A stretch of 64,000 nt of DNA from an uncultured bacterium (GTDB taxonomy: Bacteria; Krumholzibacteriota; Krumholzibacteriia; LZORAL124-64-63), in NCBI GenBank assembly GCA_963732385.1, contig CAVSZB010000004.1, positions 64,001 through 128,000 on the forward strand. The letters are read 5' to 3'. Each line of letters begins with the position of its first letter. Positions within the stretch are counted from its first letter, which is position 1. The position numbers were made by a program, and so were the translations under genes. Shown in pieces: positions 4,991 through 64,000 of this stretch. Below the pieces are notes generated by a model. It did no database searches, had not been told where the DNA came from, and saw nothing but the letters and a program-made list of their open reading frames with translations.

Positions 4991-5857
4991 GTGATCAGGA
5001 TGAAACGTCGTAACTCGCTCCTGCCGCCGACGCACGAGAAGAGCCTGGAGGTCTATTTTCGCGAGATCAACCGCTACCCTCTGCTGACGCGTGAACAGGA
5101 GGCGGAGTTCGCGCGTCGCATCCACGAAGGGGACCAGCAGGCGCTGCAGTCCCTGGTGAATGCGAACCTGCGTTTCGTGGTGTCGGTGGCCAAGCGCTAC
5201 GTGAGCCAGGGGCTGACCCTGCCGGACCTCATCAACGAAGGCAACATGGGTCTGCTCAAGGCGGCGCATCGCTTCGACGAGAAGCGCGGGTACAAGTTCA
5301 TTTCCTACGCGGTCTGGTGGGTCCGACAGTCGATCCTGCAGGCGCTGCTCGACCAGGCACGCCTCGTGCGTCTGCCACAGAATCAGTCGGCCCTGCTCAT
5401 GAAGATCAATCGGGCGCGGCATGCCCTGCAGGGAGCGTCCGGAGGGCAGGTCGATGCGGAACAGATCGCGCAGCATATCGGCCGTCATGTGGAGGAGGTG
5501 CGCCACGCGCTGGGCCATGCCGGTCAGGAACTGACGTTGGACGATTGCGGTGGCGAGGGCGATGAGCGGTCGCTGGCCGAATCTCTGGTGGATGACAACC
5601 AGCCGGCGCCTGACGTTCCGCTTTTCGAGCGGGGTCTGCAGGAGGATGTGCGCCGTTGTCTGACGGCGTTGACCCCGCGAGAGGCCGACATCATCGTCCT
5701 CTATTTCGGGCTGGGCTCGGAGGAGGCCCTGACGCTGGAGGAGATCGGCCAGCGGATGGGACTGACCCGGGAGCGGATCCGGCAGATCAAGGAGAAGGCG
5801 TTGACCAGGATGCGGGGTTCGCTGGGGCAGGCCCTGCTGGCGGATTACTACAAGTAG
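4991..5857 (+). CDS. RNA polymerase sigma-70 factor, RpoD/SigA family, short form lacking region 1.1
   Basis: ANLRFVVSVAK, DLINEGNMGL, KFISYAVWWVRQSI and TLEEIG...TRERIRQIKEKAL. Confidence 0.92.
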   Translation: MIRMKRRNSLLPPTHEKSLEVYFREINRYPLLTREQEAEFARRIHEGDQQALQSLVNANLRFVVSVAKRYVSQGLTLPDLINEGNMGLLKAAHRFDEKRGYKFISYAVWWVRQSILQALLDQARLVRLPQNQSALLMKINRARHALQGASGGQVDAEQIAQHIGRHVEEVRHALGHAGQELTLDDCGGEGDERSLAESLVDDNQPAPDVPLFERGLQEDVRRCLTALTPREADIIVLYFGLGSEEALTLEEIGQRMGLTRERIRQIKEKALTRMRGSLGQALLADYYK

Positions 5858-5943
5858 GGAGCGGAGTCGGGGCCGGTGTGGGCCGGCCTGTTTGGGCGTT
5901 ATTTGATCTTTTGATACGCGAAGGCCGCAGTTTCGACTCAGGC

Positions 5944-45046: not shown

Positions 45047-46867
45047 TTGGATCGCGAAGCGCGCGCGGCGCTGGAAGCGCTGCCGGTACAGCCTCTTTTG
45101 CAGGAATCGCCCGTTGCGGCCGGAGTGTGTCTCGACCCGGCGCTGCGGGCGGAGCTCGAAGGGCTGGCCGGCGCCACCGATTCCGTGGCAGACCGCTCCG
45201 ATCGCCTCTGGCACGCCCTGCGCAAGCGCCTTGGGCAGCCCGAAGTCCCGGAGTTGCTGCGGGGCGTGATGCTGCTGGCCAGGGCGGGCGATCCCTCCGG
45301 GGCCCGACTGCTGGCCGCCCTGCTGGACGTCCACGCTCCGGGCGCCGAGATGATCGCCCGCATCCACCGTTTCGACAGCACCCGTCGTCTCTTCGTGGCC
45401 GACCGGGCCGGCAGTCGTGGCGCGGCGGCTCCGGCGGCCTGGCGGCACCGGCTTGAGGAGGTGACCGCGATCTGTGCCGGGCGCACGGATGAGTTGCCGG
45501 GCGGGACACCGGCCCCCGTGCCGGGGCCACGCGGCGAACCGCCGCTGCCCCTGTTGCGCCGCTGGCTCGAGCACCTGCTGGCCGATCTGGCCCGGCATGG
45601 CGAACTCGAACCGCGAGGGGTGGACCTCCTGCTGGCTCTGTCGCGTTTGGAGGTGGATGCCTACGAAGAGCGGGTCAGCCGCGCTGCCGGCGCGGTCAAT
45701 CCGTATCTGGCGTCCGCCGTGTCGCGGGTATTGCCCCTGCTCGGCCAGGCGGACAGCGAGGTGCGTGCGATGCGGGAGTTCATCCACAGCATCGAGGCGG
45801 GTCGGGCCGGCGTGGCGTTCCGACGTCGTCTGCCCCGTCTGCACGAGGCGTTTTCGCCCGACGAACGTGGCGCGCTGCTCCGCTCGCTCGAGGGGCGCCC
45901 GGAACTTGTCGAAATGCTGTCGCTGCTGCGGGGAATCGAGCGCAATCCGGTGCCGATGCGGCGGCTCGCCGGCGCCGCGGCGCGCCTGATGGCGCTCGGC
46001 GCGCATCTGCGCGCGCGCGGTCTGCGCCGCTCTGACCTCGACCTGCTGACGGCCGTGGGCCTGGCCCAACGCTACGAGCGCGACGGCGAGGTGCACCTGC
46101 CGCTCGGCACCGATCTCGCGGCCACGGTCAGCGAACTGCTGGCCATCGCCCGCGGCGGTGTCCTCGACGGCGACGCTCAGGCGGCCGAGCCGGTGGAGGC
46201 GAGCGCCATGCTGACCGGACCCGCCGAGTTGCTGGCCCTGCCGCTCGGGGACGCCGAAGCAGCCGCGGCGCTGCTCAACGCCGGCTCAACGCCGGCCGCC
46301 GAAGCTGCCGGGGTTCAGGCCGAGCCGAGCGCGGGGGGATTGCTGACCTGGTCGCTCGATGGTTTCCGGCTGGGGGAGGGGGAACTGTTGCTGCGGGTGC
46401 CCCAGGAGGGACGCGTCGACCGCCCGTGGCGGCACGATCTGCCGGTTCCGATGGCGGACGAGATCGATCCCGCGACGCTGGCGGCCGTGCTCGACCCCGC
46501 CGCGTTGAAACGTCTCGTGCTGGCGAATCTGGACAACGTCAGTGTGACCACCGGCTTCCTGCGCAACGCGCGCGTGACCGCGATCCCCGGGATGGTGGCG
46601 GCAATCGTGACGCGCTGTCGCACGGCTCGCGTTCTCGATGTGATCGCCAACGATCGTAATCTCTACTCCGGGTTCGCCAACAAGGACGTGCCGCGTGCTC
46701 TCCTGTTGAGCCCCTGCAACATTCCGGTCAAGTCCCTGGCCAAGTTCATCCACGTCAAGTTCGTCCACCGGATGGACCTCCAGCGGATGGCCAAAGACAA
46801 GACAGGGATCCGCCGCGAGGTCATCAAGGAAATCCAGTCCTATCTCAATGCTCTCGGTGGCAACTGA
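45047..46867 (+). CDS. Hypothetical all-helical protein with conserved-looking basic C-terminal domain
   Basis: SD GGAGG before TTG; long ORF with strong GC3 bias; compositionally distinct C-terminal ~120 aa. Confidence 0.7.
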   Translation: MDREARAALEALPVQPLLQESPVAAGVCLDPALRAELEGLAGATDSVADRSDRLWHALRKRLGQPEVPELLRGVMLLARAGDPSGARLLAALLDVHAPGAEMIARIHRFDSTRRLFVADRAGSRGAAAPAAWRHRLEEVTAICAGRTDELPGGTPAPVPGPRGEPPLPLLRRWLEHLLADLARHGELEPRGVDLLLALSRLEVDAYEERVSRAAGAVNPYLASAVSRVLPLLGQADSEVRAMREFIHSIEAGRAGVAFRRRLPRLHEAFSPDERGALLRSLEGRPELVEMLSLLRGIERNPVPMRRLAGAAARLMALGAHLRARGLRRSDLDLLTAVGLAQRYERDGEVHLPLGTDLAATVSELLAIARGGVLDGDAQAAEPVEASAMLTGPAELLALPLGDAEAAAALLNAGSTPAAEAAGVQAEPSAGGLLTWSLDGFRLGEGELLLRVPQEGRVDRPWRHDLPVPMADEIDPATLAAVLDPAALKRLVLANLDNVSVTTGFLRNARVTAIPGMVAAIVTRCRTARVLDVIANDRNLYSGFANKDVPRALLLSPCNIPVKSLAKFIHVKFVHRMDLQRMAKDKTGIRREVIKEIQSYLNALGGN

Positions 46868-58690: not shown

Positions 58691-59599
58691 ATGGCGATCC
58701 TGGCTGTCGGCTCGGTGGCCTACGACACCGTGGAAACGCCCGCGGAGCGCCGCGAACGCCAACTCGGCGGCAGCGCCAGCTACTTCGCGCTGGCCGCCGC
58801 GCCGTTGGCGCCGGTGCGCGTGGTGGGTGCGGTGGGCGATGATTTCCGGCCGGCTGATCTCGAACTGATGGCTGCGCGCGGCGCTGATCTGGGCGGCATC
58901 GTGCGGCTGCCCGGTCCGACTTTCCACTGGTCCGGACGCTATCACGCCGACCTGATCGAACGCGACACCCTGGCCACCGAACTGGGCGTCTTCGCCGATT
59001 TTGCGCCGGTGATCCCGCCCGCCTGGCGTGACACGCCCTACCTGTTCCTCGGTAACATCCACCCCGCGTTGCAGGCCGGGGTCCTGGCGCAACTGCGCCG
59101 GCCGCGGCTGGTCGTCACAGACACGATGAATTTCTGGATCCAGGGGGCGCGTCAGGATCTGGAGGTCGTGCTGGCCGGCACGGATGTACTCCTGGTGAAC
59201 GACAGCGAAGCGCGCCTCCTCTCCGGCCGGTGGGGGTTGGCGGACGCCGCGGCGGTCATCCGCGCGCTCGGCCCCGCGCGGGTCGTGGTCAAGAAGGGGG
59301 AGCACGGCGCTCTCTATTTCGGCCCGGAAGGGGTGTTCGCGGTGCCGGCACTGCTCCTGCCGCGGGTGGTCGACCCGACCGGTGCCGGTGACGCCTTCGC
59401 CGGCGGCTTCCTCGGCAGTCTCGCGGCCGCCGGCGTCGAGTCGGGGGCGGGCGACGCGCTTTTCCGCCGCGCCATGCTCGACGGCACGGTGACGGCCAGT
59501 TTCTGTCCCGAGGGTTTCAGTGTCGAAGGATTGCTGCGGGCCGACGCGCCGGCCCGCAGCCAGCGTCTCGAGTCTCTCCTCGCCATGATGCGGCCCTGA
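58691..59599 (+). CDS. PfkB family carbohydrate/nucleoside kinase
   Basis: GGSASY, DTMNFWI and DPTGAGDAFAGG. Confidence 0.92.
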   Translation: MAILAVGSVAYDTVETPAERRERQLGGSASYFALAAAPLAPVRVVGAVGDDFRPADLELMAARGADLGGIVRLPGPTFHWSGRYHADLIERDTLATELGVFADFAPVIPPAWRDTPYLFLGNIHPALQAGVLAQLRRPRLVVTDTMNFWIQGARQDLEVVLAGTDVLLVNDSEARLLSGRWGLADAAAVIRALGPARVVVKKGEHGALYFGPEGVFAVPALLLPRVVDPTGAGDAFAGGFLGSLAAAGVESGAGDALFRRAMLDGTVTASFCPEGFSVEGLLRADAPARSQRLESLLAMMRP

Positions 59600-59631
59600 G
59601 CCGCGCCCGCGGGTGACGGGGTCCTGCCCGA

Positions 59632-59660
59632 TTGTCTCCCGCGCAGACGTCTGTTATAAT
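59632..59660 (+). promoter_or_regulatory. Strong sigma-70-type promoter of the hypothetical/peptide/HD-GYP module
   Basis: TTGTCT-17 nt-TATAAT with an extended TGn. Confidence 0.7.
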
Positions 59661-59720
59661 CATGCGAGGACGGCCACATCCCGTGCGGGCGCGCAGGCGT
59701 CGGCGCGGAAAGGAGACGCT

Positions 59721-60512
59721 TTGGAGAGCCATCCGAACCCGCGTGATGCGTGGGTGAAAGACGCCGAACGCTGGATCTGCCAGATCCACGGTGTGAGGCA
59801 GTGCAAGGTCGATCTCGACGGCCAGGGAGAGGTGAGCGGGGTCCATGTCGTGGCCGGGATGGAGCGCGAGGCGCGCCATGTAGTGCGCGATGTGGAGGGG
59901 TTGCTCAAGGCCCGTCTCGGTCTGAGTGTCTTCTATAAGAAAATCGGTGTTGTCCAAATTGTGGACGGCGAGCAGGACGAGGCGATCGAGGAGGAGGAAT
60001 CGGAGGAGGAGAGTGGGGCGGTTGCTGCGATCGCCGGCGTCCAGCGTCCCGACCTGCCGCTGGAGGCCGTGCTGCTCGAAGAGGCGGTGCCGCCGCGGAT
60101 CCAGCTCGGCGGAATCGGCCTGCTGGCCACGGACCGGACGGTCAAGGCGGAGGTTGAACTGCGGGCGGGGCTGCTCGAAGCCCGGGGTCAGCAGGAGGGG
60201 GTCAATACCAACGGGAGTGACCTCGTCCTGGTGGCCCGCGCGACCGTCGATGCCGTTCGGCAGTTGCTGATCGATCCCATCACCCTGACGCTCGCCGATC
60301 TGCAGTTGACAGAAGTGGCGGGCGAGACCGTAATCCTCGCGGCGGTCGAATTGACGGAAGGACGGAGATCAGAGCGCCTCTACGGCACCTGCTCCGGCCT
60401 GCCGAGCCGTCCCCAGGGCGTTGTCTACGCCGTCCTGGACGCGCTGAACCGACGGGTTTCGTTGCTCAGTTTCCGAAACGCCGACAAAGGGGGCGTTGAA
60501 CTGACAAGCTGA
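59721..60512 (+). CDS. Two-domain hypothetical protein with acidic linker and LeuA-allosteric-like C-terminal domain
   Basis: SD AAGGAG before TTG 59721. N-domain VHVVA...VVRDVE...KKIGVVQ. C-terminal LYG...VYAVLDALNRR. Confidence 0.75.
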   Translation: MESHPNPRDAWVKDAERWICQIHGVRQCKVDLDGQGEVSGVHVVAGMEREARHVVRDVEGLLKARLGLSVFYKKIGVVQIVDGEQDEAIEEEESEEESGAVAAIAGVQRPDLPLEAVLLEEAVPPRIQLGGIGLLATDRTVKAEVELRAGLLEARGQQEGVNTNGSDLVLVARATVDAVRQLLIDPITLTLADLQLTEVAGETVILAAVELTEGRRSERLYGTCSGLPSRPQGVVYAVLDALNRRVSLLSFRNADKGGVELTS

Positions 60513-60637
60513 TTCCATGGCGGAACCGGCAACCGGTACGGGTAACCCTTGGAAGAGCGGAGCATCCGAGCGAAGCGGTCTCTGCCGTCAGGAGCGGTCT
60601 GACGGTAAATCCCTGGTTCTAAGGGAGGTGAGGCACA

Positions 60638-60682
60638 ATGCTTCTGTGGATCATGGCGATCTTTACCAAGTGGGAGTGGTAG
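60638..60682 (+). CDS. Small Trp-rich peptide MLLWIMAIFTKWEW (14 aa), below the ORF-track size cut-off
   Basis: [13 protein letters not shown] at 60621-60631, 6 nt before ATG; TAG at 60680-60682. Confidence 0.7.
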   Translation: MLLWIMAIFTKWEW

Positions 60683-60812
60683 ACCTTGAGTCCGGGAGCC
60701 GGTTCCGCTTAATCTGCCGGGGTATCTGCCGATACCAGATCTGCGCCGCGCCAGGCGTGCCGCGCGGGCCGTGGCCGGCATCGCGCGAGGACTCCAAAGC
60801 GGAAAGACCACG

Positions 60813-62170
60813 GTGGCAAACGACCGCCCACGCAAGCACCGCTGGCTGTTCCACCTCTTCTACGGCCTGACCGTTGTCGCCGCTGTCTGTCTGATCGCCA
60901 TGCTGCTGCGCGACGGGCTGCCCCACGACCTGCGCTGGTTGGATGTGGGTGTTTTCTTCGGCTTCCTGCTGCTGACCGACACTAAACTGGCCGAACTGCA
61001 GGTGGGTGGCGGTCGTCTGCTCTCCTCGAAGTCCGATCAGCATGTGCATCATCGCTTTGTTCGGCCCTGCGATCACGGCAGTAATCGAGGCGCTCTCGTC
61101 ACTCACGCGCGGTTTTGTTCTGCACCGCATGCCGCCGCAGAAGACGATCTTCAATGCGGCCATGCTGTCGCTGTCCGCTGGAGCGGCAGGTTTGATCTAC
61201 CACGTGCTGCCTTGGCACGATCGTTTCGATGGGCCGCTCTATCTCTTCCCTTTGCTGGTGGCGATCCTTGTCTATTCGGTCTGCAACCAGATTCTTCTGA
61301 CCGTGGTGCTTGCCTTTCGACCAGAAGTTGCCGGCACGGGAGATCTATCGCCAGAACTTCGGTTGGTCGCATTTGCGGGTTCCGGTGGATGCACCGTTCG
61401 CGGCCATCGTTATCCTGCTCTACCTGCAGGCTGGCGTGTGGACGCTGCTGCTATACCTGTTCCCGGTGCTCGTACTCTTCCAGGCCAATCGAGTTACTCA
61501 GGAGATGAAACGCGCCCACGTCCACTCGATTGCTGCCCTTACGACCGCGCTCGAGGAGAAGGAGAACGACCGCTACACGCGGGGGCACAGCTATCGGGTG
61601 TCGATGTATGCGCTGCGCATCGGTCGCGCGCTGGGTCTCTCGCCGCGGCGGCTGGAGATGCTCGAGTATGGCGGGTTGCTGCACGACATCGGGAAGCTTG
61701 CCATCACGAACGACATCCTGCTCAAGCCGGGCAAGCTCACGGCGGACGAGCGGGCCGAGCAGGCCCGCCACCCCGAGATCGGTGACGACATCGTCCGGCA
61801 GATCAAGTTCCTGCACGAGGTGGCCGACATGGTGCGGCACCATCACGAACGTCCCGACGGCAAGGGCTATCCCGACGGTCTGAGCACCGATGCGCTCACG
61901 CTCGAGGCGCGCATCCTGGGGGTCTGCGACGCATTCGACGCCATGACGACCGACCGGCCGTATCGGCCGGCCCGCAGTCTCGAGTTCGCCATGGAGGAGC
62001 TGGTCCGCTGGCGCGGCACGCAGTTCGACGTGCGGGTCGTCGACGCCGTGCTCGAACTGTACCGACATGGGGAGTTCGGGGTCATCCGCGATACCGAGGG
62101 GATGCCGCTCGAGATCACCAGCACGCCAGGGCGCCGCCGGCTGGCGCTCCCCGAGAGCGTGCCGGTCTGA
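60813..62170 (+). pseudogene. Multi-TM sensor HD-GYP cyclic-dinucleotide phosphodiesterase, split by two +1 frameshifts (pseudogene or sequencing error)
   Basis: TM segments continue across three frames, with junctions near 61033 and 61316. C-terminal YTRGHS.RV, LLHDIGK, HHERPDGKGYPDGL and DAFDAMTTDRPYR. Confidence 0.8.
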
Positions 62171-62186
62171 TAATCTGGAGAGAAAC

Positions 62187-63194
62187 GTGCGTTACAGCGA
62201 CAGCGGCGTGAATATCGATGCCGCCCAGCGCGGCCTCGCGCGCGCGAAATTGGCGATCCGCTCCACCTGGGATGCGCGGGTGCGCAGCGACCTCGGCGCG
62301 TTCGGCGGCTTGTACCGGACGGCGCCGGGCGAGCCGCTGCTGGTGGCGAGCATCGACGGTGTCGGCACCAAGGTCAAGGTGGCCGCTCTCGCCGGTCGCC
62401 ACGACACCGTTGGACAGGACCTGGTCAACCACTGCGTCAACGATATCCTGGTGCAGGGGGCCGAGCCGCTCTTCTTCCTCGATTACTTCGCCGCGGGGCG
62501 GCTCGATGAAGGGGTGCTCGAGGCGGTGCTCGACGGAGTGGCCCGTGCCTGCCGGGAAAACGGCTGCGCCCTGCTCGGCGGCGAAACGGCGGAAATGCCG
62601 GGGGTGTACGCGGTGGGCGAGTTCGATCTCGCCGGCTGCATCGTCGGGCGCGTGGCCGAGGCCGATCTGATCGACGGCTCGGCGATCCGGGCGGGCGATC
62701 GCCTGTGGGGCCTGCCGAGCAGCGGTCTGCACACCAACGGCTACTCGCTGGCCCGGCAAATCCTGCTTGCCGAGGACGGCGCCGGTTTGCACGCGACGCT
62801 GCCGGAGCTCGGCGGCACCGTGGCCGAGGCGCTGCTGGCGGTGCACCGCAGCTACCTGCCCCAGGCGAGGGCGCTCTGGGCGGCGCTGGGACGGGGCGCC
62901 CTGCACGGTCTGGCGCACATCACCGGGGGTGGTTTTTTCGACAACGTGCCCCGCGTGGTTCCGGAGGGGCTGACCGCCCGCATCGACACCCGGGCCTGGC
63001 AGCCGCCGGCGCTGTTCCGGCTGCTGCAGACGCGCGGCGCGGTCGAGCCGGCCGAAATGTACCGTGTCTTCAATATGGGCGTAGGCATGGTGCTGTTCCT
63101 CGATCCCGCTGCCGACCCCGCCGCCGCCGGCGTGGAGGCCTGGCCGATCGGAGAGGTCGTGGCGGGACCGGGCAAGGTCGATGTTCTTTTTTGA
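62187..63194 (+). CDS. purM: Phosphoribosylformylglycinamidine cyclo-ligase (AIR synthetase)
   Basis: DGVGTK, LFFLDY, GGETAEMPG, SSGLHTNGYSL and FNMGVGM. Confidence 0.97.
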   Translation: MRYSDSGVNIDAAQRGLARAKLAIRSTWDARVRSDLGAFGGLYRTAPGEPLLVASIDGVGTKVKVAALAGRHDTVGQDLVNHCVNDILVQGAEPLFFLDYFAAGRLDEGVLEAVLDGVARACRENGCALLGGETAEMPGVYAVGEFDLAGCIVGRVAEADLIDGSAIRAGDRLWGLPSSGLHTNGYSLARQILLAEDGAGLHATLPELGGTVAEALLAVHRSYLPQARALWAALGRGALHGLAHITGGGFFDNVPRVVPEGLTARIDTRAWQPPALFRLLQTRGAVEPAEMYRVFNMGVGMVLFLDPAADPAAAGVEAWPIGEVVAGPGKVDVLF

Positions 63195-63506
63195 TCTGTA
63201 GCGTGGCGTCCTGCCGCGGACCTGCGTCATCTTCCGGATACACCGCGTCAACCCGTTCCCATGTTTGATGATCCCCTCAAGCTGCGTTCAGCCGCCTCCG
63301 GTGGATGACGGCTGGCGGGGACGGTGCGTCGATCCTGGCCACTCTTCGGCCAGGTTTGTCTGTCGTCTGCCGGGCCGGGTGGTCGTCGGAGGGGCGTTTT
63401 CCACTTGGCTGTGGACAAGCGTGACGCGCGGTTCGGTTCCTGCTGCATCGGCTCCGTGTCCAGGTTGCGGGGCGAGACGGGGAGGCACCGGTCGAAGGGA
63501 TCCGGC

Positions 63507-64000
63507 ATGGCGTGGGCCTTCTGGGCGGAGGAAATCCGCGGTTTTCCGCTGCTCGGGCTGGGGGCCGGCTCCGCGCTCTGGGTGGTGAGGCGCGACGGGG
63601 AGGGGGAGCGTACCGGGCTGCGCCTGCTGTACGCGCACGCCTGGCCCCACCCGCCGGTCGGCTGGACGCCCGGCCCGGGCCGGGGAGCGGGCGTGGTGGA
63701 CGCTCCGGTGGCCATTCCGCCGCCCCCCCTGCAACCGCTGTGGCGGGCGGTACAGGAGGGGATCGGCGCGGAACGGCCGTGGCGCAGCGCCGGCGAGGCG
63801 CCGGTCGGGGGACGACGCCTGCCGGGGCGCGTCGGCCGGCCGGTCCTCTGGACCGAACCGTTGCGCCGGGGGACGGAGGTGACAGGGGCCTTCGCTCTGG
63901 GGTTCGATGCCACACCTCCGTGGGATGAGGCGGTGCGGCTGTGGGGGGCGCGCTTTGCCGCGCGCGTCGCCCCCCTGCTCGACTGCCTGCCGCCCTGGCC
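63507..64000 (+). CDS. Hypothetical protein, 3'-truncated by window end (possible GAF-like N-terminus)
   Basis: Frame open from ATG 63507 to the window end (MAWAFWAEEIRGFPLL...EPLRRGTEVTGAFALGF...); start uncertain. Confidence 0.4.
   Translation, partial: MAWAFWAEEIRGFPLLGLGAGSALWVVRRDGEGERTGLRLLYAHAWPHPPVGWTPGPGRGAGVVDAPVAIPPPPLQPLWRAVQEGIGAERPWRSAGEAPVGGRRLPGRVGRPVLWTEPLRRGTEVTGAFALGFDATPPWDEAVRLWGARFAARVAPLLDCLPPW

Follow-up and report, generated by a model that had tools for sequence, protein, structure and literature searches.

The window, a stretch of 64,000 nucleotides of DNA from an uncultured bacterium of the Krumholzibacteriota, was analyzed at a locus with the gene order pfkB-like kinase, unnamed gene, short open reading frame (sORF), HD-GYP gene, and purM. 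The features of this locus are as follows.

59632..59660, + strand: putative sigma-70-like promoter, TTGTCT-17-TATAAT with a TG extension (1 found, 0.1 expected in shuffles)
59721..60512, + strand: gene for an unnamed protein of two domains that may bind the leader RNA; inferred start TTG 59721
60519..60530, + strand: 5' arm of the long-range stem P1, which encloses the sORF (consensus structure, inverted repeat)
60556..60576, + strand: AGCGGAGC and AGCGAAGC repeats, putative protein-binding motifs
60577-60583, + strand: anti-SD-like stretch, and a hairpin at 60582-60607 with AGCGG in its loop
60621..60631, + strand: Shine-Dalgarno sequence (SD) AAGGGAGGTGA of the sORF; GGAGGTG invariant in 26 aligned leaders
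60638..60682, + strand: 14-aa micro-peptide gene MLLWIMAIFTKWEW; ATG at 60638, 14 codons, TAG at 60680-60682
60698..60709, + strand: 3' arm of P1, 15 nt beyond the sORF stop (consensus structure, inverted repeat)
60709..60735, + strand: putative sigma-28 (FliA/WhiG)-like promoter for the enzyme gene, TTAA-N15-GCCGATAC (motif scan against shuffles)
60813..62170, + strand: predicted MASE9-HD-GYP membrane phosphodiesterase gene, with single extra bases near 61035 and 61317 in the assembly

The SD AAGGGAGGTGA at 60621-60631, the 6-nt spacer, and the 14 codons opened by ATG 60638 were confirmed as given in the preliminary description of this DNA, and so were the three Trp residues of MLLWIMAIFTKWEW (positions 4, 12, and 14) and the 130-nt gap to the HD-GYP gene, counted to the inferred GTG start at 60813. 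The SD had also been called the longest anti-SD match in the window; it is a strong match, but not the longest canonical one, having 8 contiguous bases (GGAGGTGA) in comparison with 9 at position 45456 (AGGAGGTGA). The string GGGAGGTGA was found in the window solely at the SD of the sORF. That the sORF is more than a chance reading frame was borne out by a search of the whole genome for GGAGGTG-N4-9-ATG starts, which gave 80 starts, 8 of them opening ORFs of 8-30 aa. Among these 80 starts the sORF was the sole short ORF that is hydrophobic and Trp-ended, with a GRAVY of 1.01 in comparison with at most 0.22 for the other seven short ORFs. Residues 1-10 of the peptide are hydrophobic (mean 2.34), and the sORF, which is unannotated, is present as a single copy in the window genome. 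The 14-aa form has neither a basic N-region nor a cleavage site, and no exporter or protease gene was found adjoining it.

Codon-level conservation was analyzed in the Krumholzibacteriia family to which the window genome belongs (f1; 29 genomes, 28 distinct coding sequences). The peptide is 14 aa long throughout this family. Differences at the three codon positions numbered 1293, 1065, and 2249 among the 28 coding sequences, third positions being the most variable, and the other two frames carried stops in 12/28 and 9/28. Met1, Glu13, and Trp14 are invariant, while position 4 is Trp in 13, Phe in 13, and Tyr in 2 sequences, and position 12 is Trp in 22, Phe in 5, and Tyr in 1. All 28 coding sequences end with TAA or TAG, while TGA ends 1178 of the 1699 long ORFs of the window genome. 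Judged by its pattern of substitution, the sORF is a real gene under selection.

In the window the downstream HD-GYP gene is broken into three frames; two congeners have intact copies. An intact congener copy matched PF20972 (MASE9) with 29.5 bits, against a cut-off of 24.3, together with HD_5. The frameshifted window copy gave no match to PF20972; its HD_5 match scored 123 bits, and the HD-GYP motifs LLHD, HHE, GYP, and RPYR were all present in the alignment. Because 12 of 60 congener ORFs that are intact and at least 200 aa long are likewise frame-split in the window assembly, the frameshifts of the enzyme gene are probably assembly errors, and the same cause is likely for any other broken gene of this genome. 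A true pseudogene is unlikely on the same count and since both congener copies are intact. The best available sequencing run holds 0.26 of the words of the window strain. The architecture of the gene is the same as that of the MASE9-HD-GYP phosphodiesterases TM1467 of Thermotoga maritima and HdgA of Streptomyces venezuelae (PF20972).

The MASE9 domain of the congener copy was modeled with a pLDDT of 91.5. When the model was compared with 48161 chains, the top 14 matches were ECF S-components, 10 of them so titled and 4 of which we take to be such. The best match was 4m5c_A (Z 13.1, rmsd 3.4, 185 residues aligned), a Z near which helical proteins can arrive by a common arrangement. The model gives MASE9 the fold of an ECF S-component, from which no function follows. 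The fold is that of NikM/CbiM, RibU, FolT, ThiT, and BioY, but MASE9 has 9-15% identity to S-components and is fused to a signaling enzyme; a PDB sequence search with the MASE9 profile gave no match at E up to 10. ECF S-components have an outward pocket for small ligands, which in NikM/CbiM is entered by the N-terminus of the protein itself. The main text of the MASE9 domain paper reports no ligand but suggests intramembrane binding, never uses the word 'peptide', and, where it deals with the domain, mentions neither an upstream micro-gene nor an RNA element (bioRxiv 10.1101/2021.11.05.467447). In the sections of a Streptomyces study that deal with hdgA and hdgB, the mutants are described as without developmental phenotype, and the authors suspect that activating signals were missing (PMC6205966).

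The occurrence of the peptide was examined across the phylum by way of the upstream gene, which was detected in 38/41 and 145/151 genomes; the DNA downstream was read in 86. Comparable SD-led sORFs, which the preliminary description had proposed to look for in relatives, were present in 30/30 f1 genomes with MASE9-HD-GYP next, in contrast to 0/18 f1 genomes with purM next. In other families, 17 genomes carried a version of 11-20 aa ending in KW, RW, WW, or YW, 18 genomes had MASE9-HD-GYP without the peptide (one of these 18 being an assembly gap), and 3 had purM next, so that the peptide was found in 0/21 purM-next genomes overall. A pattern search of four peptide-less MASE9-HD-GYP genomes gave no look-alike peptide elsewhere. 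Related genomes are not independent, which applies to all these counts of co-occurrence and to those that follow.

Relatives were also found outside the phylum. We assessed 82 loci, which included the best 80 of 495 from a genome scan; most were from Bacillota and some from Coriobacteriia, Atribacterota, and Sumerlaeota, and this range across phyla is a lower bound. An HD-GYP gene lay within 1.4 kb in 68 of the 82 loci, and the peptide preceded MASE9-HD-GYP in 67 of these 68 Bacillota-dominated (hereafter Bacillota-type) loci; the limit to the best 80 of 495 applies to every count on them. The peptides were recognized in 65 loci by a profile built from the same locus set and in two by inspection (variants L134 and L142), and the remaining one was frameshifted. 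Three full-length loci had neither HD-GYP nor peptide, and 11 loci were incomplete at an end, with the peptide in 3 of them. The same gene order was seen in Natranaerobius and Subdoligranulum among plasmid-collection matches. The Bacillota-type peptides are longer and signal-peptide-like, with a basic start, a hydrophobic core, and an A/G-G-A site ahead of the tail, and end in LAGGA-x-hydrophobic-x-W, the tail being mostly hydrophobic-x-Trp. Trp was found within the last six residues in 53/68 of them and was absent there in 15/68. L142, L163, and L215 are short intermediates, and across the relatives the tail is conserved in precursors of anywhere from 11 to 34 aa.

In Actinomycetota the 30 best loci were chosen independently, by MASE9 alone, and two unpublished genomes contribute none. 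A signal-peptide-like peptide was present in 21/30; the rest comprised two STTWS-repeat peptides, one subtilase, four tandem second MASE9 copies, and two with nothing. The STTWS peptides (L216 and L217) are SD-led, about 39 aa long with two STTWS units, and precede MASE9 genes of about 770 aa; they look like a different precursor type. The subtilase (L226; G316:C284) lies just 5' of MASE9 and its tail carries about nine Trp pentapeptide repeats, WDGRI-like. The NASWL unit is repeated internally in the L230 peptide, and the peptide genes are duplicated in tandem at three loci (L215, L225, and L235). The duplicated genes, the NASWL and STTWS repeats, and the WDGRI tail of the protease are, as read from the genes, product-like behavior. 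At two loci the records themselves are at issue: at L184 (JAXGPT010000002.1) the peptide ORF and the MASE9 gene both look frameshifted while leader and stem remain, and at L121 (NZ_CP144220.1) the peptide gene at 5837-5923 is unannotated and the MASE9 gene is annotated as two pieces.

Relatives of at least 20 aa, and so not the 14-aa form, were scanned against NCBIfam (10 relatives) and Pfam (9 relatives), and none matched at cut-off. The long relatives scored below threshold against the signal regions of Phr/NprX (13.6 bits where the cut-off is 75, and 16.3 where it is 35). A literature search, mostly of openly accessible journals, gave no description of these peptides, which supplementary tables such as large small-protein catalogues could list. 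By gene neighborhood, the pairing of peptide and MASE9 sensor is kept in several bacterial phyla.

The RNA around the sORF was then analyzed. The consensus of 26 f1 leaders has a P1 of 12 pairs, with two-sided changes in 9 of 17 predicted pairs, and its 3' arm lies 8-19 nt past the sORF stop in f1. An inverted repeat of mean 13 bp beat the best of 20 shuffles in 60/68 Bacillota-type and 37/40 Krumholzibacteriota loci, and the loci sharing it differ widely in sequence. All 108 leaders carried the AGCGG/AGCGNAG motif once or more, in many cases within a hairpin loop, a count for which no background rate was computed; the commonest forms were AGCGGA and AGCGAA, and Bacillota-type leaders had GA 103 times and AA 57 times. 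The SD was paired with the upstream leader above shuffles in 35/40 homologous leaders (mean 0.85 in comparison with 0.62), and in the window genome it was not above shuffles (0.54 in comparison with 0.61). A U-rich run after P1 (at least 5 T in 8 nt) was present in 34/68 Bacillota-type, 10/26 f1, and 1/14 f5/f6 loci. The local terminator scan saw none at the locus, yet P1 with its U-run is terminator-like in part of the loci. At seven loci with a P1 no better than controls and 0-1 motifs, peptide and MASE9 are kept, and several of these stem- and motif-poor loci have a -10-like box of their own before MASE9 (read by eye). In the region 59400-63600, Rfam gave no match to the leader at E up to 1 and one sub-threshold match, inside purM. 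ANTAR twin hexaloops and the T-box were considered and set aside, loop sizes and spacing being variable. The leader repeat often reads GC-GNA-GC, which as DNA is an unusually stable mini-hairpin; the likeness is probably coincidental, since no reverse transcriptase was seen nearby.

Promoter-like sites differed between families. A TTGACA-type promoter ending 11-13 nt before the 5' arm of P1 was present in 7/14 f5/f6 loci and 0/26 f1 loci. Downstream of P1, a site fitting what we take to be the sigma-28 consensus was present in 15/29 f1 loci (shuffle rate 0.021), in 0/16 f5/f6 loci, in 1/11 and 0/21 in other sets, and in 2/68 Bacillota-type loci. The window genome encodes FliA/WhiG; its fliA (C7:445513-446184) and csrA (C7:485430-485582) genes are 40 kb apart, and its 29 strict sigma-28-like sites make a draft FliA regulon in an uncultured phylum. 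In metatranscriptomes of near relatives (two runs of one study, read for presence only), contigs span the upstream gene and the sORF and run on to 60916 and 61028, while a 20-kb control region had RNA-empty bins where the DNA continues. Contig depths at the locus were 55-267 and 67, in comparison with 0-14 and 0-67 in the control; these depths do not serve as a ranking of genes, since the runs had been selected by this locus and the contigs give neither level, strand, nor ends.

The upstream protein matched no family in Pfam or NCBIfam, and its nearest Atlas cluster is auto-named LeuA allosteric domain. Its close homologues are assigned to Candidatus Krumholzibacteriia in their source records. 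Its model (pLDDT 82) has an alpha-beta-beta-alpha-beta N-domain, an acidic linker, and a C-domain. The N-domain resembles CDF C-terminal domains, the BolA-like YrbA, and EscJ (Z 7.3-8.9), and the C-domain the regulatory domain of CimA/LeuA (3f6g_B, Z 9.3, rmsd 3.0, 108 residues aligned). In Actinomycetota, the upstream protein was found in 13/13 genomes with at least two leader motifs, often divergently beside the cassette, and in 1/7 genomes with 0-1 motif, there next to another MASE9 gene; several of these seven are probably kin, and their completeness is not given. On this co-distribution, the upstream protein is a candidate RNA-binding regulator of the AGCG(G/A)A repeats. It persists in genomes without the cassette at the locus. 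Near-universal in the phylum sample and also present in Bacillota and Actinomycetota, it has no family name, and some actinomycete genomes have additional copies of its C-domain alone. CsrA was rejected as an obligate binder of the leader: GGA is not invariant, and a search of 79 cassette genomes failed to find CsrA, which is present in the window genome, in 22, three of them 93-98% complete.

We slightly favor the reading in which the Trp-ending tail of the peptide is a ligand of the adjacent MASE9 sensor and so tunes c-di-GMP breakdown by the fused HD-GYP domain. The peptide would be made and reach the outer face or the membrane, perhaps trimmed to its last 4-7 residues, and the tail would slot into the pocket that faces outward in the S-component-like fold of MASE9. 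Occupancy of the pocket would alter the predicted phosphodiesterase activity of HD-GYP, in either direction. Peptide output would be set after transcription, by the upstream protein acting on AGCG(G/A)A repeats next to a stem in which the ribosome-binding site is sequestered; P1 would close an RNA unit of about 190 nt, and in f1 the enzyme gene would have its own sigma-28-type promoter. A co-fold of peptide and sensor, suggested in the preliminary description, was run on a homologous pair and lent weak support. The pair came from L137, and the result applies to this Bacillota homologue, whose tail is atypical and slightly extended. Its natural 31-aa peptide scored 0.44 with the MASE9 of the same locus, in comparison with 0.00 for the best of three controls. 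The mark was reached by 116/157 solved complexes and 2/215 mismatches, and at 0.60 or below by 18/157 solved complexes and both mismatches. Contacts agreed to at least 63% between the L137 runs, and partner pLDDT was at least 59.

The preliminary description had offered two options. A ligand or modulator of the membrane sensor, its first, fits the co-occurrence and the weak homologous co-fold, while binding and an effect on the enzyme are what we infer. Its interpretation was supported in part; what it lacked was the identification of MASE9, the stem and repeats in the RNA, the tie with the upstream protein, and the spread over several phyla. Counted against a ligand are the 17 MASE9-HD-GYP genomes of other families without peptide, the 15/68 Bacillota-type peptides that have no Trp near the end, and the missing export features of the 14-aa form; the TAA/TAG-only stops and the short distance from stop to P1 also suit a role in cis. 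DUF5317 was considered as a universal exporter or protease and rejected, not being found in any of five genomes searched, the window genome included; it follows the sensor in two Bacillota records, one by annotation and one by resemblance.

Co-occurrence is unable to separate a ligand from a cis-element. It is unlikely that the peptide is an uncleaved small membrane subunit that stays in the membrane of its producer as an accessory or allosteric partner of MASE9. Such a subunit would account for the same co-occurrence and the same weak co-fold, and would suit the hydrophobic residues 1-10 (mean 2.34), the absent cleavage site, and the processing gene that was not found adjoining. However, 14 aa are too short to cross a bilayer as a helix, the precursor varies from 11 to 34 aa while its tail is kept, and the repeated Trp pentapeptides and the protease tail at the equivalent place suggest that a short motif is used in free form. 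Quite improbable, in our view, is an sORF acting in cis, whose translation would open a terminator-like or RBS-hiding P1 and so control the phosphodiesterase gene. The close 3' arm of P1 in f1 (8-19 nt after the stop), the T-rich runs that follow it in 34/68 Bacillota-type and 10/26 f1 loci, the bias of the 28 f1 stops to TAA/TAG, the RNA contigs extending from the sORF into the enzyme gene, and the scarcity of sigma-28-like sites in f5/f6 (0/16) and Bacillota-type (2/68) loci would all fit it. Yet a sigma-28-like promoter lies 3' of the sORF in 15/29 f1 loci, the peptide is kept where P1 and motifs are lacking, several such loci also showing, by eye, a separate -10-like box ahead of MASE9, peptide genes are duplicated, and residue types are conserved beyond the needs of a plain leader. 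Peptide and MASE9 make up the core of the cassette that persists throughout, and the stem, motifs, and upstream protein are a separable layer; this, together with the tail repeats, the duplications, the exchange of Trp, Phe, and Tyr, and the downstream promoter, speaks more for a peptide product that works on the sensor than for a leader in cis. A cis role may exist as a second layer in some lineages.

Two further readings concern the RNA more than the sensor. The P1-closed RNA of about 190 nt might be a free-standing dual-function sRNA or type I toxin-like mRNA for a general membrane peptide, its position beside MASE9 being a mere regulatory convenience. Paired ends, a hidden SD, a short hydrophobic product, and the TTGACA-type promoter 11-13 nt before P1 in 7/14 f5/f6 loci agree with this, but it is very improbable: the unit was not seen without MASE9 (0/21 purM-next genomes, 0/3 full-length loci lacking HD-GYP), is single copy in the genome, and has no Rfam match over the region. 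The second option of the preliminary description was a TrpL-like attenuator, in which stalling at Trp codons would couple Trp supply to expression of the phosphodiesterase. The three Trp codons here, the Trp14 invariant in 28/28 f1 coding sequences, and the Trp in the last six residues of 53/68 distant peptides speak for it. This option was not supported and is extremely unlikely, because Trp4 and Trp12 swap with Phe and Tyr, some relatives are Trp-less (15/68 without Trp near the end), peptide genes are duplicated, and a sigma-28-like promoter lies between the genes, 3' of the sORF; the terminator scan found no terminator-like site and the neighbors are not Trp-metabolic. Like TrpL and TnaC, the sORF is a short Trp-containing ORF in a structured region 5' of a gene, but unlike theirs its Trp codons are exchangeable and its target is outside Trp metabolism and has a promoter-like site of its own.

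The favored reading, a tail acting on the sensor, was compared with known peptide systems. In SHP/Rgg and ComS/ComR, as outlined in one account, a tiny hydrophobic precursor gene lies beside the receptor gene and the mature part is short (PMC7564271). Like SHP, ComS, Phr, and NprX, the window cassette has a short hydrophobic precursor gene adjoining the gene of a presumed receptor. However, SHP, ComS, Phr, and NprX are re-imported and read by cytoplasmic RRNPP regulators, whereas here a c-di-GMP enzyme would carry the reader as a fused membrane domain of S-component-like fold, and diderm phyla are among the hosts. We do not place the cassette in the SHP/ComS/Phr group because no RRNPP regulator was found among its neighbors (the unnamed protein, MASE9-HD-GYP, PfkB, and purM) and no family match was obtained. 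The leader has repeated purine-rich motifs in loops or single strands near the SD, like the GGA repeat RNAs bound by CsrA, but its motif is AGCG(G/A)A and GGA is not invariant. The CD1980.2 family of C. difficile consists of 58-aa proteins downstream of class I c-di-GMP riboswitches, and the part of the article that describes it gives no homologs outside C. difficile (PMC13724677); it shares a small membrane-associated product tied to c-di-GMP, but its gene arrangement is unrelated.

From gene content and conservation, what is new here is an undescribed peptide family and a candidate receptor in a variant of peptide signaling. Input signals are known for a minority of c-di-GMP enzymes, MASE9 not among them. 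The 4-7-residue tail is a concrete, synthesizable candidate ligand, and homologous cassettes are present in the cultured Thermoanaerobacter thermocopriae (L130), Geosporobacter subterraneus (L132), Caloramator quimbayensis (L159), Paratissierella segnis (L179), and Natranaerobius thermophilus (L121); the question is therefore directly testable. If the reading is true, peptide signaling would gain a new receptor class and output and reach into uncultured diderm phyla; an RNA element that has no name and a putative family of RNA-binding proteins would also come to light. A wider proposal, possible but doubtful, is a widespread and as yet undescribed one-component peptide signaling system, in which a hydrophobic-x-Trp tail would be read by an S-component-fold receptor fused to c-di-GMP enzymes, and a new RNA-binding protein with an amino-acid-sensing-like domain would control translation of the peptide via AGCG(G/A)A repeats in a stem-closed RNA of about 190 nt. 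Nutrient state and cell density would then be linked to c-di-GMP in monoderm and diderm phyla, and protease-borne Trp repeats would be an alternative source of ligand.

The end of the window, 63195-64000, was also inspected. Past purM there is an open frame of 225 aa from 63324, without a Pfam or NCBIfam match, and GGAGGTGA occurs again at 63875.
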